The notes below the pieces were generated by a model, which worked only from the letters and a program-made list of their open reading frames with translations, ran no database searches and was not told where the DNA came from. Of a stretch of DNA of 64,000 nt, positions 37,563 to 57,765 are shown in pieces. Position 1 is the first letter of the stretch, and every line of letters starts with the position of its first letter. Made by a program: the position numbers and the translations under genes. Source of the stretch: an uncultured Pseudomonadota bacterium (GTDB lineage: Bacteria; Pseudomonadota; Alphaproteobacteria; RF32; CAG-239); contig CADAAN010000001.1 in NCBI GenBank assembly GCA_902785935.1, positions 88,900-152,899 of the forward strand, in the 5' to 3' direction.

Positions 37563-37737
37563 CTCAAAGCCTTTTACGAATATATTACGGCTTTATTTTA
37601 AGTACAACATACCTTGAGGTCAAAGCATTTTTAAGTTTTATTTGCAAAATTTTTTAATAATCGTTGTTGACAAGTGTGCTTGAAAAGCATATGATGCCCT
37701 TTGTTGTATTTAACCGTTAAAGGTAATAAAAAATAAA

Positions 37738-39108: not shown

Positions 39109-40113
39109 GTGTCAAAAACTTTTTCAAAAGCACTTCTTGATTGGTATGCTCGTTTCGGGCGCGATTTACCGTGGCGTTTTAAGGGCGGAGCGCACCCAAA
39201 TCCTTATATCGTACTTGTTTCAGAATTAATGCTTCAGCAAACAACGGTCAAAACAGTGCTTTCATATTTTGATAAATTTATCAAGCGCTTTCCTGATGTT
39301 CAAAGTTTGGCGTCAGCACCGTTGGAAGAAGTTTATTTATATTGGCAGGGCCTTGGTTATTATACGCGTGCAAAATCGCTGCATCAAAGTGCTCAAATCA
39401 TTGTTTCAGATTTTAATGGTGTTTTTCCAAGCAAAAAAGAAGATGTTTTAAGACTCAAAGGTTTCGGTGCATATACCGTTTCAAGTTTTTTGGCTTTTGC
39501 TTTCAATGCCCCTCAAACGGTTGTTGACGGTAATGTTATACGCATTATGGCGCGGCTTTACCATTTAACTGACCCTGTTGATGAGATTATGCAAGACGTT
39601 ATACAAAAAGCGCAAAATCTAACCGATACACAAAATGCGGCGGATTATGCCTCCGCAATTATGGATTTAGGCGCAACGATTTGTACTAAAAAAAATCCGC
39701 TTTGCAATCAATGTCCGGTTAGTGATTTTTGTCTTTCAAAAAATCTTGACGACAAGGAGCAAATTCCGTTAAAGAAAAAAATACTCAAAAAAGATTTTAA
39801 CGGATATGTTTATGTCATTAAAAACAAAAAAGGTGAAATTTTAATCAGAAAAAGGACTGAAAAAGGTCTTCTTTCCGGACTTTATGAATTTTTATGGAGC
39901 GAAAACAAGCTTTTTAACAACGCTTTTGAAACCGACCTGTATGTATCGCACGTCTTTACGCACATCAATATGAAGTTAAAAATTTGCACTTTAACAACTC
40001 AAAAGACACCTTCAGACGGTTTTTTTGTAAAGCCTGAAGATTTGAAAAAATATGCCTTTTCAACTTTAATGCAAAAAGTGATTAAAAAATCAGAATTTTT
40101 TATCTGTACCTGA
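39109..40113 (+). CDS. mutY: A/G-specific adenine DNA glycosylase
   Basis: HhH-GPD fold, 4Fe-4S cluster Cys motif (C.NQC.VSDFC), C-terminal NUDIX-like domain. Confidence 0.85.
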   Translation: MSKTFSKALLDWYARFGRDLPWRFKGGAHPNPYIVLVSELMLQQTTVKTVLSYFDKFIKRFPDVQSLASAPLEEVYLYWQGLGYYTRAKSLHQSAQIIVSDFNGVFPSKKEDVLRLKGFGAYTVSSFLAFAFNAPQTVVDGNVIRIMARLYHLTDPVDEIMQDVIQKAQNLTDTQNAADYASAIMDLGATICTKKNPLCNQCPVSDFCLSKNLDDKEQIPLKKKILKKDFNGYVYVIKNKKGEILIRKRTEKGLLSGLYEFLWSENKLFNNAFETDLYVSHVFTHINMKLKICTLTTQKTPSDGFFVKPEDLKKYAFSTLMQKVIKKSEFFICT

Positions 40114-40681
40114 TAGAAAAAGTATTGACCTCTCCGCTGGCATTTTCAGCTTCTTTTATGGTATAAATACGTTTTCCTTTATAATAAAAATTTGCTACAC
40201 TTTTCATTTTTTTTGTGTGTAAAAAATTTGTTTTGCATTGCTCTAAATCTCCATAACAGTTGATTTTGATATTCGGGCTGTCGCTAAAATCATCTTGATC
40301 AGCCCATACAGTTGTATCATGCATCGTTACACTTTGTAAGCCATGAATCTCATCAAACGCAGCAGTATCAACATATTGCACACTTTTTGAAAGTTCAATT
40401 GTTTCGATATGATAACAGTTAAAAAATGCGTTATACCCGACATTTGTTATTCCGTCATCAATAACAACTTTTTTGATATACCCTTTATAATCAGCCCATG
40501 GTAAATGAAATCTTTCATATTCATCATTATAACCTCTCATTTCACCATTTCCTTCAACACGCATTATACCGCTTTCGGTATCAAGTGTGGCCGTACACTG
40601 CTCCCCGCATTCATAAGTCTTTATTTCTGCCTTTGCACTAAAGCTTAAAAATAAGCTCAAAATCAAAACATATTTTTTCAT
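40100..40681 (-). CDS. secreted BspA-type LRR protein with KIRYR C-terminal tail
   Basis: Signal peptide MKKYVLILSLFLSFSAKA; LRR motifs (ITNVGYNAFFNCYHIETIELSKSVQYVDTAAFDE); C-terminus KRIYTIKEAENASGEVNTFSIRYR. Confidence 0.75.
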   Translation of the reverse strand: MKKYVLILSLFLSFSAKAEIKTYECGEQCTATLDTESGIMRVEGNGEMRGYNDEYERFHLPWADYKGYIKKVVIDDGITNVGYNAFFNCYHIETIELSKSVQYVDTAAFDEIHGLQSVTMHDTTVWADQDDFSDSPNIKINCYGDLEQCKTNFLHTKKMKSVANFYYKGKRIYTIKEAENASGEVNTFSIRYR

Positions 40682-41011
40682 AAGTTTTCTCCTTATTATG
40701 TAAAGTCACAAAAAATCACTTTGAAATAAAAATCCAAAGTGGAGGAGCTAGTAAACTGTCATCGTACAGTTTTTCTTATTCGTCACTAAATAGTGCTTAT
40801 CTCGAAAACTCCTCATTAAAGGAGTTGCACGATGAATGTGTTTACTAAACACCGCAACCATTTTGGTTACGCCCCAATTATCTCACAATAAAATTTGAAA
40901 GTCAAATAAAATTCTTATTTTTACTAAAAAAACAAAAAAATAATTGAAAAATAAAGATAGTTGAGTAAAATTATTTTGAGTTTTTTTGTTTTTATTTACA
41001 GGAGAAGTTTC

Positions 41012-41443: not shown

Positions 41444-42925
41444 TCAGTTACAGCGATTTTCTTCAGTTGTTGTTTCTGCCGTAAATGTCAATGTCTTTTT
41501 CTCATCAGCATTTAATAAAATACGCCATTGATATATATTCGCGTTTTTATCCGAATAAGCGCCTTTTGAGCTTTCGTTTAAGATTTTTGTTTGCGCATGA
41601 AGCGGTTGATAAAAGACGATATCTGCTTTTTTATCACCGCCGTTATGAAAATCGACAACACTTCTGTACTGGCGCACAATTTTATAACGAGGGCATTTAC
41701 CATCTTTATCTTTTAAAACCTCATCTCGGATTTTTTTAACTTCAGCGACTTTACCGCTCACAAACACGTCAAACATCTGACCTAAACGAAGCTCCGTCTT
41801 TTCGCCTTTTGCTGTTTGAGATATGCTGTTTTCGCCGATAAATTGAAGATTGCCTTTCGAGTCCTTTTCATAAAAACGAATAATACCCTGCGGCAGAGCA
41901 ATACCCAAATTCGATTCTTTATCGTTTGTAATGATATAATAAATATCGGGATGTATTTTTTCAAAATTTGAGGCATAATCTCCGCTAAAATAAAGACCGG
42001 AATTGATGCGTCCCTCTTTTTGGTAAGAAACGTCAAATTGCTCAATTAAAGAAAGCTGTTTTGTTTGGTTGTCATCAATATCGGTTCTGTTTGGCAGATT
42101 ATAAAGCTGATAAGCACTAAAACTTTCTGGCAAGACAGATGCATTTTCGGCTACTGCCATATCTGCCACACCAAGTGCTGCAGTTTTAAGCATCATGACG
42201 TTGCGCGGCGCGATGCCGTAAGTTTTAACCTCATTGACATTGCCCGCAATCAGCTGAACAGATGCATTTTGATAGCTGATGCCTGAATTGTTCGTGATGC
42301 TGACCCAGCCTGTTAAATCAAGCATTTTTTCATCTTTAATATCCGCAACATAATTTGTTTTCCACGAAAGACCGTTTGTTAAATAAGCAATCATTAAATC
42401 TTTCAAGGTCTCTTTCGGGCTTGAAATTTTTGCCGCAAGGGTTGGTTTTTGATTAAGGTTTTGCGGCAGATTTTCAAAAACAAGGCGGCCGTCGAAATTT
42501 GTTTCAATCCCATAATCAAACTTTAAGACCGGTGCACCGTTTTGAAAACTGAGTATTGTTGCGTTGTCAAAAATATTTTCACCCGTTTGAGGGTTGGTGC
42601 GAACGGTTTTGACTTTTTGGCCGACGGATTTTTCGGCAATATTATAAGCCGTCAATAAGGCGTAATCATAATTTTGCTCCAAAACGCGTATATCATCTGC
42701 CTCAATCATAACACTTTCAGGCTTGATATTTGAGGCAACGCCTTCAAACGATATCAGATTGATGCCTTTTTTGAAATTTACCTCACGAATATCTCTTATC
42801 AAAGCCAAGTCATTGTTATAAATTGTCATTGAGATATCTTTTGACTTGGGTTTTTCAATCGTTTGTGCCTGAATATCAAATGTTAAAAGGGCAAGGATAA
42901 GTGTTAAAAGTTGTTTTTTTATCAT
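41444..42925 (-). CDS. DUF4139-domain protein (secreted)
   Basis: 493 aa with signal peptide; domain architecture consistent with the DUF4140/DUF4139 family. Confidence 0.6.
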   Translation of the reverse strand: MIKKQLLTLILALLTFDIQAQTIEKPKSKDISMTIYNNDLALIRDIREVNFKKGINLISFEGVASNIKPESVMIEADDIRVLEQNYDYALLTAYNIAEKSVGQKVKTVRTNPQTGENIFDNATILSFQNGAPVLKFDYGIETNFDGRLVFENLPQNLNQKPTLAAKISSPKETLKDLMIAYLTNGLSWKTNYVADIKDEKMLDLTGWVSITNNSGISYQNASVQLIAGNVNEVKTYGIAPRNVMMLKTAALGVADMAVAENASVLPESFSAYQLYNLPNRTDIDDNQTKQLSLIEQFDVSYQKEGRINSGLYFSGDYASNFEKIHPDIYYIITNDKESNLGIALPQGIIRFYEKDSKGNLQFIGENSISQTAKGEKTELRLGQMFDVFVSGKVAEVKKIRDEVLKDKDGKCPRYKIVRQYRSVVDFHNGGDKKADIVFYQPLHAQTKILNESSKGAYSDKNANIYQWRILLNADEKKTLTFTAETTTEENRCN

Positions 42926-43076
42926 TCTTCATCTCCTTTACTGATTATTTTGTCCTTAAAATAAGCCATTTATAATAAAATCGCAAGAGATTTTAAAAAA
43001 AACTTATTGACAAGCAAAAAAAAATATGTATATTGCACTCAAATGTTTTATCAACCTTTTATGAGAGAATATAAAA

Positions 43077-43244
43077 ATGGCAAAAGCAGTAAAAGTTAAA
43101 GTTAAGTTAGAGAGCAGTGCCGGTACGGGTACATTCTATCTTGCTGAGAAGAATCCGAGAACTCATCCTGAAAAATTGGTTTTGAAGAAATATGATAAAA
43201 AATCAAAAAAACATGAAGAGTTCGTTGAAAAGAAATTGAAGTAA
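43077..43244 (+). CDS. rpmG: 50S ribosomal protein L33
   Basis: 55-aa ORF below the ORF-track size cutoff: MAKAVKVKVKLESSAGTGTFYLAEKNPRTHPEKLVLKKYDKKSKKHEEFVEKKLK, matches the L33 consensus (KL.SSAGTG.FY...KN.R..PEKL.L.KYDP). Confidence 0.85.
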   Translation: MAKAVKVKVKLESSAGTGTFYLAEKNPRTHPEKLVLKKYDKKSKKHEEFVEKKLK

Positions 43245-43271
43245 TTCTTTTTGTTCGGCACAAGATTGAAA

Positions 43272-43298
43272 AGCCTCTCAAAGCGAGAGGTTTTTTTT
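43272..43298. terminator. bidirectional intrinsic terminator between rpmG and xerC/D
   Basis: cctctc-aaagc-gagagg hairpin flanked by an A-run upstream and T8 downstream. Confidence 0.65.
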
Positions 43299-43304
43299 GT
43301 GGCA

Positions 43305-44270
43305 TTACTTGTCTGGTTTGTTCTCATTGTTTGATGCTGGGTACGCCTTATTGTATTCTTTTTGCAAGGTATCGAGAGAAACATTTGTATATCGTTCGGT
43401 TGTTGACAGCGATTCGTGACCCAAAAGTTCTTGAATAGCACGCAAATCGCAACCCTCATTTAAAAGATGTGTTGCAAAAGAATGCCTGAGCGTATGGGGC
43501 GTGACGCTGTCAGCAAGTCCGACAACTGCACGTATTTTTTGCATTTGGCGCTGAATAATCCGCGCGAGCAATCTTTCTCCTCTGGCACCGACAAAAAGCG
43601 GATCACCTGTTTTAAGAGGATAAGGTACTTTATCAAGATAAGCTTGAACGGCCTTGATGCTAATCGGCAAAAGTGGTACAAGACGCTCTTTTTTGCCTTT
43701 GCCTTTAATCATCAATGCGTTTTGACCTTCTTTGATATCGCCGATATTGAGGTTTAAGGCCTCTGAAATGCGCAAGCCCGAACCGTAAAGCAATATCATC
43801 ACCGCTTTATCGCGCAGACCCTGCCAATCAGACTTTGCAAAATCTGTGACTTGATCCAAAAGTTCAAATGCATCGGGAGCATCAATGGCTTTTGGCAGTG
43901 TTTTGTCTTTTTTAGGGCCTGAAATAATCGAAATGGCGTCGTTTTTAATGCCGTGCTTTTTATAAAGCCAGTTAAAAAAATTTTTTATCGCCGACAATTC
44001 ACGCGCAAGCGATGATTTTGAAATATTCAAAGAAGCCCGTGAACGGATATAACGCCTGAAGTCGTGTATTTCCATTTTTTCTAAAAAAGCAATGTCAATA
44101 TTCTTAAAAAAATTGATAAAAAAAGATAAATCGCGCATATAGGCATCAAGCGTGTGCACGCTGTAACGGCGCTCTTTTTCAAGCCAGTCCTTCCACGACA
44201 AAATCAAATCTTGAATTTCGGCCGGCGCATGAAATTTGATATCTTCTTTCATGACAGGCATCATACGCAA
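43305..44270 (-). CDS. site-specific tyrosine recombinase XerC/XerD
   Basis: 321 aa; conserved R..H..R..HS..ATH box (TLRHSFATHLL) and catalytic Tyr (ERYTN). Confidence 0.85.
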   Translation of the reverse strand: MRMMPVMKEDIKFHAPAEIQDLILSWKDWLEKERRYSVHTLDAYMRDLSFFINFFKNIDIAFLEKMEIHDFRRYIRSRASLNISKSSLARELSAIKNFFNWLYKKHGIKNDAISIISGPKKDKTLPKAIDAPDAFELLDQVTDFAKSDWQGLRDKAVMILLYGSGLRISEALNLNIGDIKEGQNALMIKGKGKKERLVPLLPISIKAVQAYLDKVPYPLKTGDPLFVGARGERLLARIIQRQMQKIRAVVGLADSVTPHTLRHSFATHLLNEGCDLRAIQELLGHESLSTTERYTNVSLDTLQKEYNKAYPASNNENKPDK

Positions 44271-44315
44271 AATTTGTTAAATAATGATAAAAAAATTGTT
44301 TTTTGTATTTGACAT

Positions 44316-44528
44316 TTGTTTTGTTATTGTGATGAAATCTTAAAAAGTCATGGTATATCAAGTTACAGCCTCACAGCTGCGCCATATACCGAAAAATATG
44401 ATGATGGGAGTGTCGGGATATTCAAAGACGGTAAACTACTTTCTTTAACAGGCAAGCGCATTTATACCATTGATGAGGCCAATGCCGTCGCAGGTAAGAC
44501 AAATTCGGTCAAAATCAGATATCGATAA
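44316..44528 (+). pseudogene. remnant carrying only the conserved KIRYR tail of the LRR family
   Basis: 70-aa ORF with no signal peptide or LRR body, ending GKRIYTIDEANAVAGKTNSVKIRYR; the 3' ~70 nt are nearly identical to the 3' end of the gene ending at 32913. Confidence 0.45.
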
Positions 44529-44553
44529 AAATCTTGCAAAATCCGTCTTATAT

Positions 44554-45093
44554 TTACTCTGTCGGGTTTTGTTTTTCCCGCTCTCTTTTTAAGGCTCGAT
44601 AAAGTTCCGGACGCATAAATTTTCCGCGCCAAATACCTTTTTTTGCCTTTTTTGCGCGTTTTTCAATTTTTTGATAAGCCTCATTTCGATAAGCAATCGC
44701 ATAACCGGCTTTGAGCATCTCAATATTAAGATTTAAATTTTCGATATGACAAACACTCAAATCGCGTTTATAGCGATCAACATCTTTAACGTCGCATTTG
44801 ACCTTAAAGCCCTGAGATATGCCTTCATCAATCATTTTTTTAAGATAATCTTTGGCATCCTGACCGCAAAAATAAGATTTACCGGTTTCATCAAAACATT
44901 CTTGAAAAAGCTCAGGCGTATCAATACCGATAAGCCTGATTCGCCGTGTACCGATTTCCAAACTGTCGCCGTCAACAACCTTAACCTCAGTTGAAGCAAG
45001 GGTTTCGGCCGTCAACTCGGCAATTAAAACAGCAATGATCAAAAAAATCAATTTTTTCATAAAGGGCAATATATCATTAAATATTTTTTTCAC
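44554..45093 (-). CDS. secreted thermonuclease (SNase-like), second copy in window
   Basis: Signal peptide (start may be the internal MKKLIFLIIAV); SNase motifs VVDGDSLEIGTRRIRLIGIDTPE. Confidence 0.7.
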   Translation of the reverse strand: MKKIFNDILPFMKKLIFLIIAVLIAELTAETLASTEVKVVDGDSLEIGTRRIRLIGIDTPELFQECFDETGKSYFCGQDAKDYLKKMIDEGISQGFKVKCDVKDVDRYKRDLSVCHIENLNLNIEMLKAGYAIAYRNEAYQKIEKRAKKAKKGIWRGKFMRPELYRALKREREKQNPTE

Positions 45094-45178
45094 AAGCTTT
45101 ATTTTTGTTTACGATTCGTTCATATTATCACGATATAATCACAACATATTTTAGGTTTAACCTTGCAAGGAAAAAATC

Positions 45179-46432
45179 GTGATTAAACATATTCACAGTA
45201 CTTTGGCAGTTGCGGTCTGTGCCTTTTTAGGCGCTTGCCACACATCGCCTTCAGAACCCGTTTTGCGTGCGCAGGAATTTCAGCCGCAAATGACTTATCC
45301 TTCATCGGTCGTCGTTTGTCGCTCAAAACAGTGTGCACCGGCAAAACTTTCTATGTCAAAAGAATACATTTATAATTCTTTGACACATCTTTTAGAACAA
45401 AACGTGCATGAAAAAGCGCTTGTTTGCCAAGCCGATCCGTTTACACACGTTTGTACGGAAGATTATGTCACCTTGCCGATTACGGTGGGTGTAACGCCGG
45501 CAAATTTATATATTGATGATGTTGAAATGACGGATGTTTCTGTCGGACTTAGTCGTCGTTCTATCGATTTGATCCTAAATTACGGTATTTCGTATAATGG
45601 TCAAACGCCGACTTGCAAACCGGCCAAAACACTCGTGTACGTCAAAAATACGCAAAATATTGTTTTGGAAGATGCCGGTTATACCTGCAAAATGACAACC
45701 ATCGGCAATACGGCCATCAAAACTTTGTTTGCCATTGATTATATCGATTTGGATTATGGATTTATCGGCGGATATTATTCCATCGGTTTATCCGGACCGG
45801 CATATGGCGGCAGAACAGGGTATATGATGTTTAAGTTTAAAAATGATGCATATCCGCTTTCGCCTGATTTGATTTTAGATGAGCCTTGGCCTGATTCACA
45901 AAAAGATGCTTTAAAGAAAAAAGAAGCAGAGTTAAAACAAAAAGAAGCTGAACTTAAAAAGCAAGATGAAGACTTAAAGGCAAGAGATGAGGCCATAAAG
46001 CAAAAAGAAGCTCTTATCGGTCAGGCCATTATGGATGAACAGGGTGAGCCTGTATATGAATTTACGGATGCAACGCTTTTTGAAGGAGCAGAATGTTATT
46101 CTACCGTCTTAGAGCCGATGCCTTGTTATGAAACATGGCCTTGTTATGAAGAGCCTGCCATCGGTAAGGTGATTTGTCCGGAACCGAAAGCCGAAACATT
46201 CACCATTATTCAAGATGACGGTACAAAAATCGAGCGCTCAAAGGGTGTGATTACGCCAAAGGCAGTTAAAAACGTCAAAGAAAAAGAAGCTGTCAATACA
46301 AAAGATGTCGCACCAAGTAAGTCCGAATCGACGACAATGTCCGTTTATGAGCCTTCCGTTTCACAAGATATGAAAGGAACGCAATATAATGGCGTTGAGG
46401 TCTTTCCGATTTATCAAAAAAAGAAAAAATAA
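45179..46432 (+). CDS. hypothetical lipoprotein with central KE-rich coiled coil
   Basis: Lipobox FLGAC; coiled-coil segment KKKEAELKQKEAELKKQDEDLKARDEAIKQKEA. Confidence 0.55.
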   Translation: MIKHIHSTLAVAVCAFLGACHTSPSEPVLRAQEFQPQMTYPSSVVVCRSKQCAPAKLSMSKEYIYNSLTHLLEQNVHEKALVCQADPFTHVCTEDYVTLPITVGVTPANLYIDDVEMTDVSVGLSRRSIDLILNYGISYNGQTPTCKPAKTLVYVKNTQNIVLEDAGYTCKMTTIGNTAIKTLFAIDYIDLDYGFIGGYYSIGLSGPAYGGRTGYMMFKFKNDAYPLSPDLILDEPWPDSQKDALKKKEAELKQKEAELKKQDEDLKARDEAIKQKEALIGQAIMDEQGEPVYEFTDATLFEGAECYSTVLEPMPCYETWPCYEEPAIGKVICPEPKAETFTIIQDDGTKIERSKGVITPKAVKNVKEKEAVNTKDVAPSKSESTTMSVYEPSVSQDMKGTQYNGVEVFPIYQKKKK

Positions 46433-46569
46433 CTTTTTAAAGCGTACAAAAACCTTAAAAAAGTCTCGCAGAACCGATGCGGGACTTTTTTCTTGTAAAC
46501 AAAGGACACAAAAATCGCCTCTTGCAAAATTTTATAAAATCAGCTATAAAAAATACCGAGGAATTAAAA

Positions 46570-47073
46570 ATGGCTCAAGATGATATCAAGTTAAAAAAAG
46601 CGTATTCACCGCAATCAAGGTTTAAAAACCAAAATGTTGAACCTGAATTTTGGCGTCATAAAAAGCTTGAAGAAATGAATAAAACGGAATGGGAACTTTT
46701 GTGTGACGGGTGCGGTAAATGTTGCCTCAATAAGCTTGAATATAAAGGCAAAATTTATTTTACAAATGCGCATTGCCGTTTTTTAAACCCTAAAAATTGT
46801 CTGTGCCGTATTTATCAAAACAGATTTGAAGTTGTTAAGGATTGTCGCGATATTGACTTAAAAGCCATCAGAGAAAAGCCGAGATGGCTGCCTAAAACGT
46901 GTGCTTATCTGCTTATTGATGAGGGTAATGATTTGCCCCCTTGGCATCCTTTAATCACGGGTAAAGCATCTTCTGTTTTTGATGCCGGCGTATCACTTAA
47001 AAACCGACCCGTTATCAGCGAATCAGAGGTTAAAGATTATGAAGATCACATTGTTGACTGGCAAGACCTTTGA
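46570..47073 (+). CDS. ycgN: YcgN-family (UPF0260) Cys-rich protein
   Basis: Start moved to MAQDDIKL; conserved LCDGCGKCCLNKL ... C.C motif and C-terminal WHPLITGK, matching YcgN. Confidence 0.65.
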   Translation: MAQDDIKLKKAYSPQSRFKNQNVEPEFWRHKKLEEMNKTEWELLCDGCGKCCLNKLEYKGKIYFTNAHCRFLNPKNCLCRIYQNRFEVVKDCRDIDLKAIREKPRWLPKTCAYLLIDEGNDLPPWHPLITGKASSVFDAGVSLKNRPVISESEVKDYEDHIVDWQDL

Positions 47074-47746
47074 CATAGAAAATACCTTTGATTTTCCGCT
47101 TATAATCAAATCATCGTTAAGAATAAAGCGTATGAGTTTACGCATTGATCATAAGTGCCGTGAGGTTATTTGTTCCGTACCGAAATTTTGTTCAAAGAAA
47201 AGAATAGTTGAATTTATCAACACATATCTTGATTGGATTGAAGAAAAATTGAGCAATTTGCCTGCTGTCAAAGATTTTGAGGACGGAGAACATATTAGCC
47301 TTTTCGGTAAGTCTGTTGTTATTTGTCATCAAGACGATTTCGGTGCGCCAAAACTTATTGAAGATAAGCTTTTTGTTGGTGGGGATAAAGCTTTTTTGCA
47401 CCGAAGAGTTAAAGATTTTATCAAACGTGAGGCAAAAAAAGAGTTTTTTCGCCGCTCTCAAATCCTTGCGGATAAACTTCAAGTCAAGCTTTCGGGTGTG
47501 ACAATTAAAGATACAAAATCACGCTATGGAAGCTGTTCAACTCTAAAACACATCAACTATAACTGGCGCATTGCTTTGGCACCCGATATGGTGATTGATT
47601 ATTTGATGGCTCACGAGGTTGCGCATTTAAAGCATCAAAATCATTCGTCCGCTTTTTGGCAGACCGTCAGGCTTTTGGATGTTAACTGCGATGAGGGAAA
47701 GTCATGGCTTTCGGTTCATGGCAACGAACTTTTTCTTTATAGATAA
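47039..47746 (+). CDS. M48-like metal-dependent hydrolase (YgjP/DUF45 family, HExxH)
   Basis: Start at internal MKITLLTGK; HEVAHLKHQNHS zinc motif near the C-terminus. Confidence 0.65.
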   Translation: MKITLLTGKTFDIENTFDFPLIIKSSLRIKRMSLRIDHKCREVICSVPKFCSKKRIVEFINTYLDWIEEKLSNLPAVKDFEDGEHISLFGKSVVICHQDDFGAPKLIEDKLFVGGDKAFLHRRVKDFIKREAKKEFFRRSQILADKLQVKLSGVTIKDTKSRYGSCSTLKHINYNWRIALAPDMVIDYLMAHEVAHLKHQNHSSAFWQTVRLLDVNCDEGKSWLSVHGNELFLYR

Positions 47747-47750
47747 AAAA

Positions 47751-48863
47751 TCAGTTTTTCTTTAAATAAACTTTTTCTTTAATCTCTTTGGCTTTTTTTG
47801 TAACTGCTTTTGCTTTTTGATTCAACTCATCAGCTTTTTGAAGCATTTTTTGCTTTAAAAGCTCTAACTTGCGTTGCTTTTTAATTTCTTTTTGGCGATA
47901 ACCCAAATACCCCTCATACGATAAAAGCGCAATACCCGAAATGACAAGCGGCAACAAATAATAAATGATGCGATAAGCAATCAAAGCCCCATATAAAAGC
48001 GCTTGATTTTCAGCCCCGGGGATGATATTTGCAAACACAAGCTCAAACACACCAAGTCCGCCCGGCACTTGGCTGTATACGCCCAAAATTTGCGCAATGA
48101 TAAACGCGCCGATAAAAACATTAAACTTTATATCCACAAAATGGGTCAACGTAAAATAAAGCACAAGTGACGCCATTAAAATATCAAGACTTCCGATAAC
48201 AATTTGTTCCAGTGCCATTTTAATGGTCGGCATTTTAAATTTAATCCCCTTAATGGTTACCGATTTTTTATAATAAAGTGCCGCCGTCAAATAAAGCCAT
48301 AATCCGATAAATGAGCCGAAAGCCACAACGGCTGTTGTATATTTTGATGCACTGGCCTCTCCAAAAGCATGCCCAGGTGTGATAAAATACCCGACAATAA
48401 TTAAAAAAAAGCACGCTACCAAATATGTAAAGCCGGAAAACGTAATCATTTTAACAATCTGATCAGCTTTGATACGCCAACGTGTATAAAGTCTGTAACG
48501 TATCGCGCCTCCAGAAACAATCGCGTGTCCGGCATTGTTACTGACACTAAAACCGATAAATCCGGCAAAAATCCACTTCCACGTATCAACTTTTTTCTTG
48601 ATATACTTTAAGGCCAAATAATCATATGATGACAAAGCCACATATCCGAAAAACGAGGCAATAGAGGCATAAATCAAATTTTTTGCCGGTATGCTTAAAA
48701 GCGCATTTTTGATGTCATCTAAATCATATTTTGAAAGCTGGCGATAAATCATGTACGCGGCTAAAGCAAAAAAGAAAAGTCCTGCCCATGAAATGATTTT
48801 TTTCAATACTTTTTTTGTTTTACGCGCAATGCCATGCGCATGCTTTGTGTCTTTAGTCAGCAT
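47751..48863 (-). CDS. integral membrane protein (UPF0104 / lysylphosphatidylglycerol-synthase-type TM domain family)
   Basis: Eight or more predicted TM helices; basic C-terminal tail; start placed at the internal Met to avoid overlap with the Sel1 gene. Confidence 0.5.
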   Translation of the reverse strand: MLTKDTKHAHGIARKTKKVLKKIISWAGLFFFALAAYMIYRQLSKYDLDDIKNALLSIPAKNLIYASIASFFGYVALSSYDYLALKYIKKKVDTWKWIFAGFIGFSVSNNAGHAIVSGGAIRYRLYTRWRIKADQIVKMITFSGFTYLVACFFLIIVGYFITPGHAFGEASASKYTTAVVAFGSFIGLWLYLTAALYYKKSVTIKGIKFKMPTIKMALEQIVIGSLDILMASLVLYFTLTHFVDIKFNVFIGAFIIAQILGVYSQVPGGLGVFELVFANIIPGAENQALLYGALIAYRIIYYLLPLVISGIALLSYEGYLGYRQKEIKKQRKLELLKQKMLQKADELNQKAKAVTKKAKEIKEKVYLKKN

Positions 48864-50046
48864 GGGTCCCCCTTTGTTTTTGTAAATTGCCGTCGATATA
48901 GCGCCTGATATTTTTACCAAAAGTTTGACGAATATATATGGTCAGTTCAGAAGGTTTTTCCTTGTATTTTTCAGCCGCACTTTGCGCTTCCAATAAATCT
49001 TCAATCTTCAAGGCTCCTTCAAGTGCATCGCGTTTTTGCGCCGCTTCCTGAGAACCGTAAACCGATGCCACGTTATAAGAAATATGTGCCTGCATCAGAT
49101 TTTGAGGAAACATCCTGCCTTCAGTCAAAATATCTGCCAAATGCATCATCGCTTCAACATTGCCCTGTGCGCCTGCCGCACGATAAAGTCCGACCGCATT
49201 GCCATAGTTTTTGGCAATACCTTCACCTTTAGCATACATATCCGCCAAAACAAGCTGACCCTCATCAAATTGAGCTTTTGCGGCTTTTTTGATAAGTTCA
49301 ACGGCTTTTCGCTGATCTTGTTGTACCACAAATCCTTTATGATAAGCATAACCCAGCATAAAATTAGCTGTATTATTGTCAGCTCCGGCGGCTTGCTCAA
49401 ACAAATCTATCGCCGGCTTAAAATACTGCGATTTACCGGAAGAAAGATAGATAAAACCTAAATTGACGGCGGCATCATCACTACCGTTTTGAGCCGCTTT
49501 TAAGAAAAGATCGGCAGCTTTTTGATAATCAACATCGGTGCCGATACCGCTGAAATAAAGACTTCCGAGATTGTTTAAGGCGATAATGTTATTTTTTTGA
49601 GCCGCAAGCTCGTAAAAATGGAATGCTTTTTGATAATCTGCCTCAACCCCGTCTTGTCCGTAAAGATACATATATCCTAAAGTCAAAGCCATATTTTCAT
49701 CACCGTTTTCGGCCAAACGCGTGGCGCGTTCAAGTTGTGTTTCTTTTTTCGGTGCAGATGAATCTGAATCTTGATTTATCGCTTGATTATCACCCTTTTC
49801 TTCTATTTTATCACTTGATGAAAAAATCGAAAGTGGTTTTTTGATAAACGAAAAATTCAAAAACGAAAAAATACCGCGGTCATCGGCGACATTTTCATCA
49901 GCTCTTTGCGTTTCATAAGATGCTTCTTTTTGTTGTACCTCATCTGAAACATCATCAACAATCGCACCTGCTAAATCAATACTTTGCGCATAGCCATGAT
50001 AAGCCAAAGTACTTAAAAACAGTATCAAAACAATCTTTTTTATCAT
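48853..50046 (-). CDS. Sel1-repeat (TPR-like) protein, secreted
   Basis: Signal peptide MIKKIVLILFLSTLAYHGYAQS; at least five Sel1 repeats (A...Y..A...G...A...LG..Y..G.GV..D...A). Confidence 0.8.
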   Translation of the reverse strand: MIKKIVLILFLSTLAYHGYAQSIDLAGAIVDDVSDEVQQKEASYETQRADENVADDRGIFSFLNFSFIKKPLSIFSSSDKIEEKGDNQAINQDSDSSAPKKETQLERATRLAENGDENMALTLGYMYLYGQDGVEADYQKAFHFYELAAQKNNIIALNNLGSLYFSGIGTDVDYQKAADLFLKAAQNGSDDAAVNLGFIYLSSGKSQYFKPAIDLFEQAAGADNNTANFMLGYAYHKGFVVQQDQRKAVELIKKAAKAQFDEGQLVLADMYAKGEGIAKNYGNAVGLYRAAGAQGNVEAMMHLADILTEGRMFPQNLMQAHISYNVASVYGSQEAAQKRDALEGALKIEDLLEAQSAAEKYKEKPSELTIYIRQTFGKNIRRYIDGNLQKQRGTHAD

Positions 50047-50144
50047 ATTTTATTCCTCTTTATGCGAGATAATAAAATACTTTATGTTAAAAAAGTATGA
50101 CTTTCAAGGCAAAATAATCAAAAATTTACGCAATGATGCAAATT

Positions 50145-50366
50145 TTAACGATATCTTATCTTAACCGAATTGACTTTACCTGCTACGGCATTCGCCTCAT
50201 CGATAGTATAGATGCGCTTGCCTTCAAAACCGAGGATATCGCCACTTGCATTTTTTATCGTTGTGCTACCATCCGCATTTGTCGATTCGCTATAAGCGTA
50301 TGAATTTTGTGAGCTTATTTCTGTTGAGTATTTGCCGCCGGAGAAACGGTAGTAAACACCAGACAA
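50145..50366 (-). pseudogene. remnant carrying the KIRYR tail of the LRR family
   Basis: 73-aa ORF with no signal peptide, ending GKRIYTIDEANAVAGKVNSVKIRYR. Confidence 0.45.
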
Positions 50367-50531
50367 CCGGTCACCATCTTTGTCATAAGTATATACCGAA
50401 CTTGGATTTTGTTGACAGATGCTGTTGGAACAACTGTAATATGTTTCTGTTCATTCAAATCTTGTCAAGCAAAAAAATCCTATTAATTTTCGGATGTTTT
50501 AAATTTGTTTAAAAAAAATAAATATTTTCTC

Positions 50532-50559
50532 TTGACAGATGAAAAAAGTTATGTATATT
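50532..50559 (+). promoter_or_regulatory. sigma70-type promoter for rplU-rpmA (TTGACA-16-TATATT)
   Basis: Consensus -35 and near-consensus -10 about 45 nt upstream of the rplU ATG. Confidence 0.55.
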
Positions 50560-50602
50560 GCAAAACACGTTTAATTTAAATTTAGAAAGTTTAGGTGAAA
50601 AA

Positions 50603-50914
50603 ATGTTCGCAGTTATTAAAACCGGCTCAAAGCAATACAAAGTCGCGGCAGGTGATGTGATTAAGGTTGAAAAACTTAGCGCAGCAGAAGGTTCTGAAGT
50701 GATTTTTGATGAAGTATTGGCTTTGGATGAAAAAATCGGCAAGCCTTTCGTTAAAGGTGCCAGCGTCAAAGCTACTGTTTTAAAACAAGCTAAAGACGCA
50801 AAGGTCATTATCTTTAAAAAGAAGAGAAGACAAAATTATCGCCGCAAAAACGGCCACAGACAACAAATTACACTCGTCAAAATTATGGACGTGTGTGCAA
50901 GTAAAGAAGCTTAA
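50603..50914 (+). CDS. rplU: 50S ribosomal protein L21
   Basis: [25 protein letters not shown]; start moved to the ATG at 50603 (103 aa). Confidence 0.9.
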
Positions 50915-50931
50915 AGTATAGGAGACACACG

Positions 50932-51183
50932 ATGGCACATAAGAAATCAGGCGGTAGCTCTAACAACGGACGTGATTCTATCGGACGTCGCTTGGGTGTT
51001 AAAAAATTCGGCGGTGAAGCCGTTATCCCCGGCAACATCATTATCCGTCAACGCGGCACAAAGTATCATCCGGGTGCTAATGTTGATATGGGTAAAGATC
51101 ACACAATTTTTGCCGTTGCTGAAGGCAAAGTTGCTTTCAAAGAGCAAGGTGATAAAATGTTCGTTTCCGTTGTGACGGAATAG
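50932..51183 (+). CDS. rpmA: 50S ribosomal protein L27
   Basis: [25 protein letters not shown] typical L27 N-terminus. Confidence 0.9.
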
Positions 51184-51221
51184 AGCATTGCTTTAAGGTC
51201 AAATTTAAAGGCGGGGTATAA

Positions 51222-52328
<1,107 letters not shown>

Positions 52329-52344
52329 TAAAAGGAGAAAAATT

Positions 52345-52686
52345 TTGAAAAAAGACGATAATGAAATCTTAAATTTAATCACAAAGATTTTGGATGACAA
52401 TAAAGCAGAAAATGTTGTTGTGATTGATTTAGAGGGCAAAACATCTATTGCCAATCAAATGGTTGTGGCATCAGGAAATTCCAACCGTCACGTGGCGGCG
52501 ATCGCTGATAAAATTTTAGAGGCTTTGAAAAAAGCCGGTTTTAAGGCAACGTCTGAAGGCACCGAAAAAGCAGATTGGGTGTTAATTGATGCTTTTGATG
52601 TGATTGTGCATATCTTCCGCCCCGAAGTGCGAGAGTTTTATAATTTAGAAAAAATGTGGCAGGCGATTGCCGAAAAAAGAAAATAA
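52345..52686 (+). CDS. rsfS: ribosomal silencing factor RsfS (Iojap)
   Basis: 113 aa, conserved VIDL.G....ADY.VI.SG.S.RH core. Confidence 0.85.
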   Translation: MKKDDNEILNLITKILDDNKAENVVVIDLEGKTSIANQMVVASGNSNRHVAAIADKILEALKKAGFKATSEGTEKADWVLIDAFDVIVHIFRPEVREFYNLEKMWQAIAEKRK

Positions 52687-52846
52687 TTTTTTTAAGATAC
52701 AATGCATTGGCGGATGAATAAAAATTTTCACCCGCCATATTTTGTACTCAAAAAGACTGAAAATAAAAGCATCATTTAATGATATTTTCAGGTCAAACAA
52801 ATACTTTTTCGATTCGCTATCGATAAAAGTTTGCAAGGCTCAATAC

Positions 52847-55800
52847 TTAAAATGCATACTTGAGGCCGATATCGGCTTTGGTGTTGTACTCGCTGTCAAT
52901 ATATGAAAAGATGTTTGCATAAATGGAGAGCTCTTTGACGTTGTATTCAAAGCTGTTTTTCAGCATGAAATAGTCCTTGCGGCGTCTTTCATCTTTAAGC
53001 AGATAAGCGCCTTCCATTTCACGCATTGAAACCTTTAAGTGATAAGGATCGCCAAATTCGTGATACATCATTAAAGTTGCGTTCATTTTGAGATTATCGT
53101 TGTTCTTTAAATCAAACTTTTTACCGATATTGACTCCGATACCGCTTTCAAGCGAAAAGGTATTTTGCTTTTTAATGCTCAGGGCAAAAGTTTTATTGTC
53201 CTCGCGGCCCTTGATTTGAGCCATGCTTGTATTAAGCGCAAATGTCGGTGAAACGTACCATCCGTCATTTTTGATAAGATAGCGTACCTCATTTGAAAAA
53301 CCGAAGGTTTGTTTTTCGATATGTCCGTCAAAACTTTGCTTGGCAAAACCGTCTCGCGTGTAGGTTCCGTAAGCATAGCCGATATGCGGCATGGATAAAA
53401 TCTCAAATCCGTCCTTTTCATACCCCAAAGGCATCATCATTTGAAAGTTTTCATCTTTTCGGGCAGGCTTAGAGGCATCGCGTTTTTGACGGCGTGTCGT
53501 TAAAGAAAGGCCTATGCCGAAGGTTTTGCCGTTTTCTTTTTTGCCGCTTAACATCCATGTTGAACGCGCATCTGATGTGTCTTTTAAGTAAAAAGGCTTT
53601 GTGTCACCCGTTAAAGCAAAATCAGACTTTGTATTGGCAAAAAACGCATCGCTGATATCAAAATTTAAGGTCTTTAAGGCCATCATATCGTCAAATGCAA
53701 AATCTTTTAAGCTGTCGCCCGTCAAATCATTCAGAGCGTTTTCAATGCCGCTGACATTTGTTTGCGATTTTAAGAGGCCGTAAAAAGCCTCATTGTTTTT
53801 TAAGGTATAGTTCTCTTCCAAAAAGTCGGCAAGAGAAGCGTTGTCCGTCAAATCAGAAAAAGCTTTTTTGCTCAATACGACATCGTTGCCGTTAAGCGAA
53901 GCGTCAAATAATGCCGATTCCGAGCTTAAATGAAGTGCGCTTGCGTCATCGGCATTAATTGCATTTTCAAGCGTATATGTTTGATTAAATCCGTTTTGAA
54001 CCGCATCTGTACCGATATTTAAGTTACCGGAAATACTGCCTTGAGCTGTAAAGCGGCCGGTTGATGTAAGTTTTACCCCGCCGGAACCTAAATTAAGTGA
54101 GCTTAAAGAAACGATGTTGCCGTCGTTAACGAGTGTTGCGCCGCTTTCAAGATAAATCGCTTTATCACCAAAAGGTGTCGTGCATCCTGAAGACGTGCAA
54201 TAAGTGCTGTAATTTGTACTGTTAAGCGCACTGTTGTTGATTGAAATAACAAACGTATCTTTAATGGTAACAACCGCGTTGTTTTTTGCCCAAATGCCAT
54301 ACGTTGTGACACCATCTTGTCCATAAACATCAATACGTCCCGAATTTGTGACGCTTCCGCCGTCACTGTATATGCCGCAGGCAATACCCGATGAGCCCGT
54401 GTTTTTGACATAAACGGATTTATCCGGAAATGTGGCTGAATTTGTGACATTGCCGCCGACATTATAAATGCCATAAACATTGCCGTCATAAGTTGTGGCT
54501 AAAATCGAAGACGTGTTATCGATTGCTGAATTGCCGCTTGCATAAATGCCGTAAGCGTCACCTTTTGTTGTTGAAACAATTAAAGCACCGCTCGATGTCC
54601 CCCAAGAATTTGTAAATGTAGCGTCCTTGATGTAAGCTCCGTAAACATCATTTCCGTTGCTTTGAATCATTATTTGTCCGCCGTTTGAAATTGTACCCCC
54701 GTTTAGTGCGTGAATGCCGTATGCTTTGGCATTTGTTGATGTCACGTCAAGATAATTTGAGGAGATTAAAGAACCGTTTGAGGCGCTGAAAATACCATAA
54801 GCGTTGCCGTTAACCGATTCGACCGATGACGGATATGACAAGGTCACATCACCCTCAGCATAAAATCCGTAAGCATCTCCTGACGCCGCTTTGGCCGATA
54901 AAAGCGCTCCGCTTACAACAGAACCCTTTGAATAAAGCCCGTAAACACTGCCGCTGCCTGTACTTTTGGCTATAACGGAAGATGTTAATGTGGCAAGAGT
55001 GTGTGTTATGTTATCAGTGTCAGTATAGGATTGCGAGCTGTTTTCATTATAAATTGTGCCTGATGTTGCTCCGTTATATATGCCGTACACATCGCCGCTG
55101 CCGGCATTTGAAACATTAACAACACTATCCATAAAAAGTGAAGAATAAACATTTTTTGAACTATCTTCATCATCTTCATAATATCCGGCCGTACCATCAA
55201 AATAAGTATTGTAAATGTTGCCGTTGCCGTAAATACCATATACTTTTCCGTCGCCGTTTGAGGTGATTGAAACAGAAGCGTCTAAAGTGCCTTGAACAAT
55301 ACCGTTTTCAAGATAGATATAGTTGTTATAAATATCCGTTGCTGTTGCGGAATACATACCGTAAACATTACCGCTGCCGTTTTTTATAGCCTTGATTGTT
55401 GAAGTTTTTGAGCCGATGCTATGCAAAGGTGTGTCATCTCCAACGATGGATGTCGCACCCTCATCCGTTAAGTATTTGTAGGTATTAACAAATGTTGTTT
55501 GGTCGAGATTTGGCGCACGCTCGCCGTAAGTGTCTTCTGCATCATAAAACAAACCAAAAACATTTTGGTATGTTGTGCTGTTTAAGGATATATTGCCCGT
55601 TTGGTTATAGTTTGTATTAACATTGTTACCAAGCATCGGAGCACTTTGAATAACACATTCGCCGATTGCATTGTATCCGTAACCTGAAGCGCAGGCGCCG
55701 CAATTTGTGCCGGTGTATCCCTCATCGCACTTGCAAACAGCACCGATTTGTACGCCGTGACCGCAATCGTCAATTGTTTTGTAACAATCAGGTGTGCCGT

Positions 55801-56401: not shown

Positions 56402-56494
56402 TTTTTGTTCCGATTTTTGGTTACAATTGGTGCTGATTATAAAGCGCTATTTGTAAATTTTGCGTTAAAAACAGATGACTTTAAGGGCTTAAAA

Positions 56495-57367
56495 TTATCT
56501 GTATCTGATGCTGACGCGATTTGTTTTGCCCGCAACTTGATTTGCCTCATCGATGGTATAGATACGCTTTTCTGTTCGGCTCCCGAAATGTGCCGCAATA
56601 TTGCCTTTAGCGTCTAAAACGTATTGCACCCCGTTGATTTCTTTTGTTGTTGCTTTCATAGATTTTAATTCGGGATATCCTGCGTCGTCTAAATTTTTAT
56701 CGCATTTATCCGTATCCCCGATGCAATAAATTTTTATCCTTGATGTATCCGTTAAGGGCTCCCCCTCAACCTCCGGTTTAAATATCGCTCCGAATTTTGT
56801 ATCTTCACCGATTGTCAATGTTTCAATCTCACACCAACTTAAAGCCAAATCCGCGATAGAGGTCACCGAATTAGGAATAATGATATCCTTAAAAGTTCCG
56901 CCTCTGAAGGCTATATCAATCGTTTCAACAGAATCCGGTATATTTAAGCGGTCAATATGACTCCAGTCAAAAGATGCATATTCCAATTTTTTAACCGTAT
57001 CCGGAATAATGATTTCAGGTGCCGTAATTCCGCGAAAAGCGTAACCGTTAACCGCTTCTAAACCGGAGGGAATCTTAATCGAATTTTGGCTTATCATACC
57101 CGAAAAAGCAGAGTCACCAAGATCTTTGATAGAAGAATCAATTTCAATACCTTTGACTGAGCTTGTTTGATCCTTCCAAGGCGCATTTTTATTATCATAC
57201 CAAGATCCTATATTTCCTTTGCCATTTGTTCCACGAATAGACAATATGCCATTTTCAATTTGCCACTCGCAATTTGCCGTATTACCATTGGCGTCTGTGC
57301 CGCAAGCTTCCCATGCATTGGCATTAAAACTTAAAACCAAACCCAAAACAAAAATCCATTTTTTCAT
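56495..57367 (-). CDS. secreted BspA-type LRR protein with KIRYR C-terminal tail
   Basis: Start at MKKWIFVLGLVLSFNANA (signal peptide); LRR motifs (IKDLGDSAFSG...IPSGLEAVNGYAFRG...IPDTVKKLEYASFD...IPDSVETID); C-terminus KRIYTIDEANQVAGKTNRVSIRYR. Confidence 0.8.
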   Translation of the reverse strand: MKKWIFVLGLVLSFNANAWEACGTDANGNTANCEWQIENGILSIRGTNGKGNIGSWYDNKNAPWKDQTSSVKGIEIDSSIKDLGDSAFSGMISQNSIKIPSGLEAVNGYAFRGITAPEIIIPDTVKKLEYASFDWSHIDRLNIPDSVETIDIAFRGGTFKDIIIPNSVTSIADLALSWCEIETLTIGEDTKFGAIFKPEVEGEPLTDTSRIKIYCIGDTDKCDKNLDDAGYPELKSMKATTKEINGVQYVLDAKGNIAAHFGSRTEKRIYTIDEANQVAGKTNRVSIRYR

Positions 57368-57627: not shown

Positions 57628-57765
57628 GAAAAATATTCTTCCTGTTTGAAAGTTATTGTGGCACATTTTAAGATAAATGTCAAAGAAAAATTTTTTTGAG
57701 TTGATAATGGTTTTCAAATGCGCTATATAAGAAGAAAAACAAGAAAAATTGAGGGAATTATAACC

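Follow-up and report, generated by a model that had tools for sequence, protein, structure and literature searches.

Background

Families of surface-protein genes in host-associated bacteria are known to change along several routes. In ordinary deletional decay, a paralogous surface-protein gene passes from intact to frameshifted, then to 5'-truncated and finally to a relic of a few codons, with neutral substitution and with presence or absence differing between close lineages. In the cassette systems of Anaplasma (msp2/p44), Neisseria (pilS) and Borrelia (vls), promoterless partial copies of surface genes, which have conserved sequence in common with the expressed ones, go together with recombinational mosaicism in the family, and the cassettes, which are maintained, hold a variable region between two conserved flanks. 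In the sap system of Campylobacter fetus, oppositely oriented members of a surface family stand at the ends of a segment of about 6 kb that is found in both orientations; their long conserved 5' regions point towards a promoter segment that inverts often within a single clone. PcpA of Streptococcus pneumoniae and other BspA-type LRR proteins, lastly, are composed of an exported LRR domain and a separate C-terminal module, which in PcpA is a choline-binding cell-wall anchor.

We analysed a stretch of 64 kb (hereafter the window), of which the host is an uncultured ruminant-gut alphaproteobacterium. A preliminary description had flagged three short open frames in it that end in a common tail, and had proposed that they are the product of recombination anchored on this tail, as in cassette-type antigenic variation, rather than of random decay. 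Here, we place these frames in a protein family and compare the loci between strains. With a probability of roughly 0.7, the flagged frames are non-functional, deletion-truncated pseudogenes of an LRR family, two of which are the decayed ends of a segment that is inverted between lineages.

Results

An exported LRR family with a conserved C-terminal tail

Three intact members of the family are present in the window:

31957–32913, + strand: intact member, 318 aa; signal peptide, LRR_5 and tail
40100–40681, − strand: intact member, 193 aa; signal peptide, LRR_5 and tail
56495–57367, − strand: intact member, 290 aa; signal peptide, LRR_5, beta-hairpin module and tail

All three possess Sec-type signal peptides and LRR_5 repeats (41.8–71.6 bits against a Pfam gathering cutoff of 27.7), in agreement with the earlier prediction that the intact members are surface or secreted proteins. 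The predicted structure of the 56495–57367 product (pLDDT 86) has the fold of BspA-type LRR surface proteins including PcpA (Foldseek matches to PDB 4cp6, 4h09 and 6mlx). Every intact gene comes with a promoter and leader of its own and is preceded by the Shine-Dalgarno sequence AGGAGAAA. The leader, a conserved structured RNA ahead of 3/3 intact window members, gave no matching family in an Rfam search.

The tail, of about 25 aa and with the consensus (G)KRIYTIDEANxVAGKxNSVKIRYR*, is common to the three intact genes and the three flagged frames. All six carry the motif by which we define family membership, KRIYTI[DE]EAN.VAG..N..[IL][RK]Y[RK] at the extreme C-terminus. When a tail HMM was run against all stop-to-stop frames, the flagged loci scored E = 1e-16 to 1e-18 and are therefore far beyond chance; the tail and its stop codon are present at all three loci, as had been described. 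In total, the window holds six complete tails and one partial tail.

By an exhaustive profile search, 582 clusters (50% identity) with the tail were retrieved. In all of the 150 best matches listed the tail forms the last residues, typically of a protein of 250–450 aa, and LRR_5 (PF13306) was found in 20/20 full-length tail-bearing proteins tested. This search corrected the biased outcome of a word-index search with the tail profile, which had returned short proteins only; a word-index protein search with one of the flagged frames (stub B, see below) returned a single entry (P0001). Another entry (P0007) that looked like a 73-aa stub was rejected, being a full-length gene with a scaffold gap inside it.

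The family is one of multicopy exported BspA-type LRR proteins with a conserved C-terminal module, whose last ~25 residues are the KIRYR tail. When the window members and the 20 full-length proteins were scanned with Pfam and NCBIfam, no model covered the tail, and none of the sorting-signal models in these libraries (T9SS CTD, LPXTG, PEP-CTERM, GlyGly-CTERM and others) matches it. A hydrophobic helix, as expected of a sorting signal, is absent from the tail sequence, and a literature search yielded nothing on the tail motif or on LRR proteins of this clade. We infer that the tail probably serves to anchor or sort the exported LRR domain at the cell surface; among living paralogs it would then be kept by the needs of the protein and not as a DNA recombination site.

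Anatomy of the remnants

The short tail-bearing remnants of the window, together with a possible leftover of the parent gene of one of them, are the following:

5609–6145, + strand: 5'-truncated family pseudogene after trmL, 178 open codons; partial LRR region, C-terminal module and tail
44284–44343, + strand: putative leftover start of the parent gene of stub A (ATG-AT-A7-TTG...), reading MIKKLFFVFDICFVIVMKS*
44313–44528, + strand: stub A, 71 open codons, tail at 44451–44528; in the SNase–xerC spacer, divergent from xerC
50145–50450, − strand: stub B, 101 open codons, tail at 50145–50222; upstream of Sel1 and on the same strand
52791–52826, + strand: fourth relic, 12 codons, GQTNTFSIRYR*; between rsfS and a convergent 1184-aa gene

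The frame at 5609–6145 had been called a non-LRR stub, which is incorrect: about 120 of its 178 codons align to the LRR part of the family-specific HMM, with a weak match to Pfam LRR_5 (15.5 bits, under the cutoff of 27.7). Stubs A and B have no match in a Pfam LRR_5 scan, and in stub B neither a start codon nor a signal peptide, LRR region or leader is left; these short frames are pieces of family genes rather than LRR proteins. Although the three flagged frames are open, as had been noted, they are not intact genes, for an in-frame ATG, a Shine-Dalgarno sequence and a signal peptide were looked for in each and found in none. Public gene calls for the identical contig omit stubs A and B. Stub A does lie beside the start of xerC/D, 49 nt from the annotated ATG, though on the opposite strand.

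The reading at 44284–44343 is offset by one base from the frame of stub A, and no Shine-Dalgarno sequence precedes it; in a sister lineage, its ATG is joined without a shift of frame to the final seven codons of the tail (MIKKMFSVKIRYR*). To see in it the former start of the parent gene of stub A is speculative.

The three loci named earlier are real, and the list missed the 12-codon relic, which is present in both lineages. With the 7-codon relic of the sister lineage, the remnants are graded in size (178, 101, 71, 12 and 7 codons). All four window remnants keep the 3' end, and a search with the family HMM found no 5'-only remnants; a weak match at 37278–37592 was rejected as such, being an unrelated small lipoprotein. 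The 3' bias in this small sample is not what simple random deletion predicts.

Inversion of the segment between stubs A and B

The surroundings of stubs A and B contain the following further features:

43305–44264, − strand: XerC-like tyrosine recombinase adjoining stub A; best match TIGR02224 XerC
44529–50144, no strand: segment between the inverted tails; SNase, 417-aa hypothetical, YcgN-like, YgjP-like, MprF-like and Sel1 genes
50463–50468, − strand: TTGACA box just inside the rplU-side boundary

Stubs A (+) and B (−) form an 81-nt inverted repeat around the SNase to Sel1 genes. A sister lineage, to which L068, L064 and others belong (92–97% identity), has this A–B segment of about 5.6–6 kb the opposite way round, so that, in the strain comparison suggested in the preliminary description, two of the flagged loci are the very places where the structure varies. 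The 15-kb contig L068 follows window positions 42264–44302, continues with 50169 down to 44454 in inverted order and resumes from 50483 onward. The xerC-side junction of this arrangement has a 100% match in a JGI contig and its rplU-side junction also occurs in L069, L072, L073 and L074; the window-type order is also found in L002, L003, L004, L070 and L071.

Between SNase and rplU, the sister lineage has a family gene of 287 aa that is intact and has a leader of its own; this gene occupies the segment end that holds the tail of stub A in the window and that now faces rplU. Beside xerC, the sister lineage has only the 7-codon relic. The TTGACA box at 50463–50468 aligns with the promoter box heading the 232-nt leader of this intact gene. 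Both outer limits of the inversion, at 44302/44303 and 50482/50483, are situated beyond the tails; the tail pair is the only long inverted repeat, and none covers both limits. The orientations are divided between lineages that have diverged (dS 0.04–0.62) and that differ in sequence content at both ends, and they were never seen in the same sample among the contigs retrieved.

Tail A has only 71% DNA identity to the tail of the intact gene in the corresponding position of L068, and the adjoining SNase gene has a dS of 0.10. This calls for one further replacement or conversion at the least, and the history must be more than a single inversion plus deletions. A single inversion by crossover in the tails was rejected on this 71% identity and because the N-terminal portions of the stubs have not remained beside the outer flanks. 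A recent inverted duplication was rejected as the origin of A and B because their DNA homology is limited to the 81-nt tail, at 84%. Since both stubs lie at inversion ends, the loci are recombination-prone; homology between two inverted genes may have caused the inversion, and any order of events is a reconstruction.

Further relatives added little. The synteny around xerC is kept in 0/34 GTDB relatives (XerC identity 52–76%), none of which has a tail near xerC, and because of this lack of synteny they are uninformative on the age of the stubs. The outgroup contigs L065 and L066 contain Sel1 and MprF without informative neighbours, and TrmL and SecB look-ups for the 5609–6145 locus returned only 100% identical contigs and hence no comparison.

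Replacement of an LRR body at another locus

At a locus outside the window (L090/L086), comparison between strains shows a replaced LRR body of 644 nt between flanks that are 92–95% identical. The 5' leader and the start are conserved, and homology is regained at the start of the C-terminal module. Four contigs carry a +1 T frameshift at this locus. The earlier suggestion of recombination or replacement is thus partly borne out, by this locus and by the A–B inversion, but an anchoring role of the tail is not supported. Breakpoints had been expected at the start of the tail: one L090/L086 breakpoint does fall at the start of the C-terminal module, whereas the inversion limits do not fall at the tails.

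These observations could also be read as recombination-driven variation of surface proteins, in which the leader plus start and the C-terminal module would act as homology arms for swaps of LRR bodies, inverted pairs such as A and B would promote inversions, and the stubs would be by-products and occasionally donors rather than the outcome of simple decay. We consider this unlikely.

Substitution patterns in the stubs

Among strains at 97% identity, stub A has accumulated four non-synonymous changes and one synonymous change, compared to 3:19 in the neighbouring xerC (Fisher p = 0.009), and stub B has a ratio of 3:3. In another species, a tail ORF of 75 aa has a ratio of 8:0, with 1:14 in its neighbour gene; a ratio of 1:4 was also recorded among the genes neighbouring short tail frames. 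The stubs evolve neutrally, and the 12-codon relic has in other strains acquired R to C and Y to F changes at conserved residues. The earlier judgement that random decay is the less likely explanation is contradicted by the graded remnants, the neutral substitutions and these mutations in the relic, all of which show decay.

That the short frames are independently expressed small proteins using the tail module alone is quite improbable given these ratios. It would account for the persistence of open frames of 71–178 codons, for the ATA to ATG change that provides stub A of strains L003 and L004 with an in-frame start codon and a 57-aa gene call, and for the ATG and strong terminator that the 75-aa ORF, a hypothetical protein in GenBank, has in six variants; because of the latter two cases, expression of some short forms is possible. 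However, the window strain has no such ATG or Shine-Dalgarno sequence, the stubs have no signal peptide, yet the full-length members are all exported, and the stubs are missing from the sister lineage and from related species.

Discussion

The anatomy of the remnants, their family membership and neutral evolution, the inversion polymorphism and the LRR-body replacement are direct observations, and they fit best with deletion-truncated pseudogenes. The family would turn over fast, its genes being inactivated and their variable LRR bodies swapped or deleted, and the leftovers would be eroded in the narrow gaps that separate essential neighbours. Stubs A and B would be decayed family genes bounding a segment of ~6 kb that became inverted between lineages of one species-level group, the other lineage still holding a complete gene at one segment end.

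A system in which the stubs serve as promoterless donor or archival cassettes, with the tail as anchor for gene conversion, is in our opinion very improbable. The stubs are indeed promoterless partial copies with a conserved terminal block from a variable surface-protein family, the LRR body at L090/L086 has been exchanged between a conserved leader and start and the C-terminal module, and the flagged loci show structural variation. But the variable LRR region that would have to be donated is almost absent from the stubs, which have one conserved flank only. The tail DNA, only 54–83% identical between copies, is too short and too diverged for a homologous flank, and a tail-anchored cassette system is unsupported for this reason. 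The longest exact runs, of 5–23 nt, do not exceed the minimum length that RecA needs for efficient recombination. The stubs moreover evolve neutrally, with mutations at conserved residues, and the sister lineage has cut one of them to seven codons. Because each of the several intact genes has its own promoter and leader, there is no sign of a single expression site fed by silent cassettes.

Least probable of all is a programmed invertible element, in which the XerC-like recombinase would flip the 6-kb segment at the inverted tails and so switch a family gene: a tyrosine recombinase stands at one boundary in both arrangements, the 81-nt inverted repeat brackets the segment and both orientations occur in nature, but these orientations are divided over diverged lineages and different samples and differ in content at both ends, the limits lie beyond the only long repeat, the recombinase looks more like a housekeeping XerC/XerD enzyme (318.6 bits with TIGR02224 XerC, where the curated cutoff is 335, and 256 with XerD, against ~50 with invertase models) and the stubs yield no complete gene in either orientation.

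The stubs themselves are ordinary pseudogene relics and do not resemble a functioning system of antigenic variation. They point to a large exported BspA-type LRR family in uncultured ruminant/gut alphaproteobacteria that is in no curated library, as is the case for its C-terminal module (582 clusters), which probably anchors or sorts these proteins, and for the conserved structured leader RNA of the intact members. The fast turnover at the level of lineages, through inversion, LRR-body replacement, frameshift and deletion, is a signature of diversifying pressure on surface proteins. For annotators, short tail-bearing ORFs in these genomes are better labelled as fragments than as new small proteins.

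Comparison with known systems

The family has the layout of PcpA and other BspA-type proteins, an exported LRR domain with a separate module C-terminal to it; unlike that of PcpA, this module has no Pfam or NCBIfam match, belongs to Gram-negative alphaproteobacteria and is a presumed rather than an established anchor. With msp2/p44, pilS and vls, the family shares promoterless partial copies and recombinational mosaicism, but here the stubs consist mainly of the conserved end, decay neutrally and have diverged in DNA, and a single expression site is lacking. The A–B segment resembles sap in its size, in the oppositely oriented family members at its ends and in the occurrence of both orientations; in contrast to sap, the 3' tails face inward, the end genes of the window lineage are dead and the orientations are fixed in long-diverged lineages. 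Compared to ordinary decay of surface-protein genes, the remnants differ in that all recognisable ones retain the extreme 3' end and that two of them stand in opposite orientation on either side of a lineage-inverted segment, while they share with it the whole series from intact gene to few-codon relic, the neutral substitution and the presence or absence that differs between close lineages.

Tail-bearing loci in the window

The window (G+C content 37%) is nearly identical to the 98-kb metagenome scaffold ENA ERZ28613383 scaffold_449 (1 mismatch in 21 kb), and its nearest GTDB relatives are uncultured Alphaproteobacteria MAGs from ruminant rumen and gut. By six-frame scanning, we found six copies and one partial copy of the C-terminal tail (G)KRIYTI[DE]EANxVAGxxNxxxIRYR followed by a stop codon:

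5609-6145, +, short frame after trmL, flagged previously
31957-32913, +, intact family gene, 318 aa
40100-40681, -, intact family gene, 193 aa
44313-44528, +, stub A, beside xerC
50145-50450, -, stub B, beside the Sel1 gene
56495-57367, -, intact family gene, 290 aa
52791-52826, +, 12-codon relic with partial tail (GQTNTFSIRYR and stop)

Each of the three long genes encodes a typical N-terminal Sec signal peptide (MKK, hydrophobic stretch, AxA) and BspA-type leucine-rich repeats (LRRs; Pfam LRR_5, 42-72 bits). The scan thus recovered motif and stop at each short frame named in the preliminary description, which had missed the 12-codon relic, had regarded the short frames as intact, although none is a complete gene, and had called 5609-6145 a non-LRR stub, while it holds about 120 residues of LRR.

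The relic is common to the window lineage and a sister lineage (92-97% identity to the window), carries R to C and Y to F changes at otherwise invariant tail positions in some strains, and has the tail of family protein P0171 as its closest relative (30 nt at 97%). It lies 20 nt from the stop of a convergent gene encoding a 1184-aa protein (52847-56401, -) that is without Pfam or NCBIfam match, as is the 417-aa protein encoded at 45179-46432 (+). In the sister-lineage contig L068 gene calling yields 929 + 232 aa in place of the 1184-aa gene, so the latter too differs between the lineages.

Coding status of the short frames

No in-frame ATG was found in stub A of the window strain, the frame of which opens after the TGA at 44310, nor in stub B, and no Shine-Dalgarno sequence precedes stub A; intact genes have AGGAGAAA 6-8 nt upstream of their ATG. 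The trmL-side frame opens in the middle of an LRR, 10 nt past the trmL stop. A signal peptide is present in none of these three frames, and stubs A and B are missing from the gene calls for the identical public contig.

Substitutions in short tail-bearing frames and adjoining genes (non-synonymous : synonymous)
Stub A, window versus L003/L004 (same position, 97% nt identity): 4 : 1
xerC adjoining stub A, window versus L003/L004: 3 : 19
Stub B, comparison of three window-arrangement strains: 3 : 3, of which one change lies in the tail
75-aa tail ORF of another species (GenBank MBR1916099.1), two strains: 8 : 0
Gene beside the 75-aa tail ORF: 1 : 14

The counts for stub A and xerC differ (Fisher p = 0.009); the tail contains one of the stub A changes. 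Pooled, the short frames have a ratio of 15:4, which fits unconstrained sequence, where random changes are non-synonymous about three times in four, and which is far from the non-synonymous share of 10-15% in neighbouring genes. Judged by their sequences, the short frames are not working genes.

The 75-aa tail ORF (L083 1968-2195, L084 3001-3228) follows a DUF502 gene, has an ATG and a strong terminator and is without signal peptide; its neighbours differ mostly synonymously between the two strains. It is either decaying or under diversifying selection.

An inverted segment between stubs A and B

The region has no long inverted repeat other than that of stubs A and B, the 81-nt arms of which are 84% complementary and separated by 5612 nt. 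The two stubs bracket the genes for SNase, the 417-aa hypothetical protein, YcgN-like, YgjP-like, MprF-like and Sel1 proteins. The comparison of strains proposed in the preliminary description revealed both an inversion and an intact allele, as three blocks of L068, a contig of 15 kb from a different sample (ERZ27252073), can be aligned to the window:

L068 2-2040, window 42264-44302, 96.7%, DUF4139, rpmG, xerC
L068 2039-7738, window 50169 down to 44454, inverted, 91.8%
L068 8760-14908, window 50483-56638, 94.2%

In L068, xerC(-) is followed by Sel1(+) to SNase(+), by a 287-aa family gene (-) that is complete and has a leader of 232 nt, and by rplU(+). Sequence specific to the window is confined to 44303-44453 and 50170-50482, and that specific to L068 (7739-8759) comprises LRR body, signal peptide and leader. 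A TTGACA box (50463-50468, -) survives in the window at the boundary on the rplU side and aligns with the promoter box in front of the leader of the intact L068 gene, indicating that stub B lost leader, signal peptide and LRR by deletion. Beside xerC, L068 2022-2063 has only ATGATAAAAAAAATGTTTTCGGTCAAGATAAGGTATCGATAA, reading MIKKMFSVKIRYR and stop, in which a start codon and the last seven codons of the tail are fused in frame. The same ATG in the window (44284-44343) opens a signal-peptide-like frame (MIKKLFFVFDICFVIV...) one base off the frame of stub A, and 20 nt at this ATG resemble the Sel1 start, one indel apart; the significance of the mini-ORF and this resemblance is uncertain.

The xerC-side junction of L068 is reproduced at 100% in the JGI contig L064 and the rplU-side junction recurs in L069, L072, L073 and L074, while the window arrangement is also found in L002, L003, L004, L070 and L071; among the contigs retrieved, both arrangements never occurred in one sample. 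Window and sister lineage differ by a dS of 0.04-0.62 per gene. Along the inverted segment (44554-50046 versus L068 2162-7644) synonymous divergence varies six-fold, from 0.10 (SNase) to 0.62 (YgjP-like), and it amounts to 0.04-0.34 in the flanking ribosomal-protein/obg genes, an unevenness that suggests a mosaic history of between-strain recombination.

These comparisons show that stubs A and B are what decay has left of the two family genes at either end of a segment inverted while the two lineages diverged, and that the other lineage still has a complete family gene at one end. A simple crossover within the tails does not account for this arrangement: both stubs lie inside the outer limits of the inverted segment, DNA homology between A and B is confined to the 81-nt tail, stub A and the L068 gene at the same position are unrelated upstream of the tail, and their tails are only 71% identical, although the dS of the adjoining SNase gene is 0.10. 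At least one extra replacement or conversion and separate deletions in each lineage are needed. A programmed switch of the segment by an invertase is unlikely because the orientations are fixed in diverged lineages, content differs at the two segment ends and the adjoining recombinase scores as housekeeping XerC/XerD type.

LRR-body replacement and decay

Outside the window, in contig L090 (scaffold_1163, same sample), an intact family gene of 347 aa is flanked by a SNAP-like and a PilS-domain gene. We compared this gene (L090 3001-4044) with its counterpart in L086 (2301-3339) and likewise in L087-L089, each of these four contigs stemming from a different further sample. Identity in the flanks is 92-95%; homology ends 23 nt into the gene, after the ATG, and returns, at 95%, where the C-terminal module begins. 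In between, the 644-nt LRR body is swapped for an unrelated one with 59% amino-acid identity to the N-terminal part of family protein P0024. These breakpoints indicate that LRR bodies are exchanged between conserved ends, one of the more novel by-products of this work. In all four independent contigs L086-L089, an additional T in a T6 tract (T6 to T7) splits the gene into 244 + 112 aa, which could be slipped-strand phase variation or simply inactivation.

Together, the loci form a decay series from intact over frameshifted genes to remnants of 178, 101, 71, 12 and 7 codons. All four window remnants keep the 3' end (n = 4, not significant, and ascertainment may contribute) and the family HMM detected no 5'-only remnant in the window. 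Each lies within 20-100 nt of the end or start of a neighbouring gene; as a guess, this proximity may shield the last codons from further deletion. A JGI rumen sample has a further genuine tail stub (L076 249-401, +, 51 open codons), at an unrelated locus and downstream of AT-rich non-coding DNA; at the amino-acid level the pre-tail part of this stub resembles the trmL-side stub and its tail end stubs A and B.

Of the earlier proposal of repeated recombination or replacement, the replacement part finds support in the LRR-body exchange in L090/L086-L089, but a cassette system anchored on the tail is not supported, and decay, previously deemed less likely, explains the short frames best. The best-supported reading is that they are pseudogene relics, left by a family of exported LRR proteins that evolves fast and is prone to recombination; the finding is real and mostly ordinary.

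A structured leader of intact members

In every intact tail-family gene, a TTGACA/TAATA promoter is separated from the AGGAGAAA ribosome-binding site by a conserved 5' leader of 230-290 nt:

31688-31956, +, before the 318-aa gene
57368-57660, -, before the 290-aa gene
40682-40913, -, before the 193-aa gene
L068 8528-8760, -
L077 5610-5838, +
L069 6957-7250, -
L090 2686-3004, +

RNAalifold on three copies gave 81 pairs, 18 of which with compensatory changes, and a terminator-like hairpin with T-run directly upstream of the ribosome-binding site. The leader has no match in Rfam, occurs in the window only before the three intact family genes and is a candidate riboswitch or attenuator; its presence before every intact window member is another of the more novel by-products. 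A tRNA gene (31517-31587, -) lies about 40-100 nt upstream of the promoter/leader of the 318-aa gene.

The tail family and its C-terminal module

A tail-region profile searched against 1.84 billion representative proteins (E <= 0.001) matched 582 clusters, with the match reaching the last residue in 150 of the 150 best hits. Matched proteins are typically 250-450 aa, and LRR_5 is present in 20/20 full-length members tested. Among the sequences inspected, the common layout is signal peptide, LRR_5, Cys-containing linker, a repeated beta-hairpin/helix-like unit (GKFYASLDDLxxGNY, or DDGSxxIxxxxGxLL in the subtype of stubs A and B) and tail. Paralogous LRR bodies share 25-30% amino-acid identity. 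Their tail DNA is 54-83% identical, with longest exact runs of 5-23 nt, indicating that the tail is kept by protein-level selection and not by DNA-level homogenisation. This is a large, undescribed family, and its C-terminal module, for which neither Pfam nor NCBIfam gave a model covering the tail in the three long window genes, also ranks among the more novel by-products.

The AlphaFold model of the 290-aa window gene product (mean pLDDT 86, dropping to 52-79 across the tail region) has its matches among BspA-type LRR cell-surface proteins, namely 4h09, pneumococcal PcpA (4cp6) and TpLRR (6mlx). PcpA possesses a C-terminal cell-wall anchor and, by analogy with that anchor, the tail module is most likely a putative surface-anchoring or sorting element.
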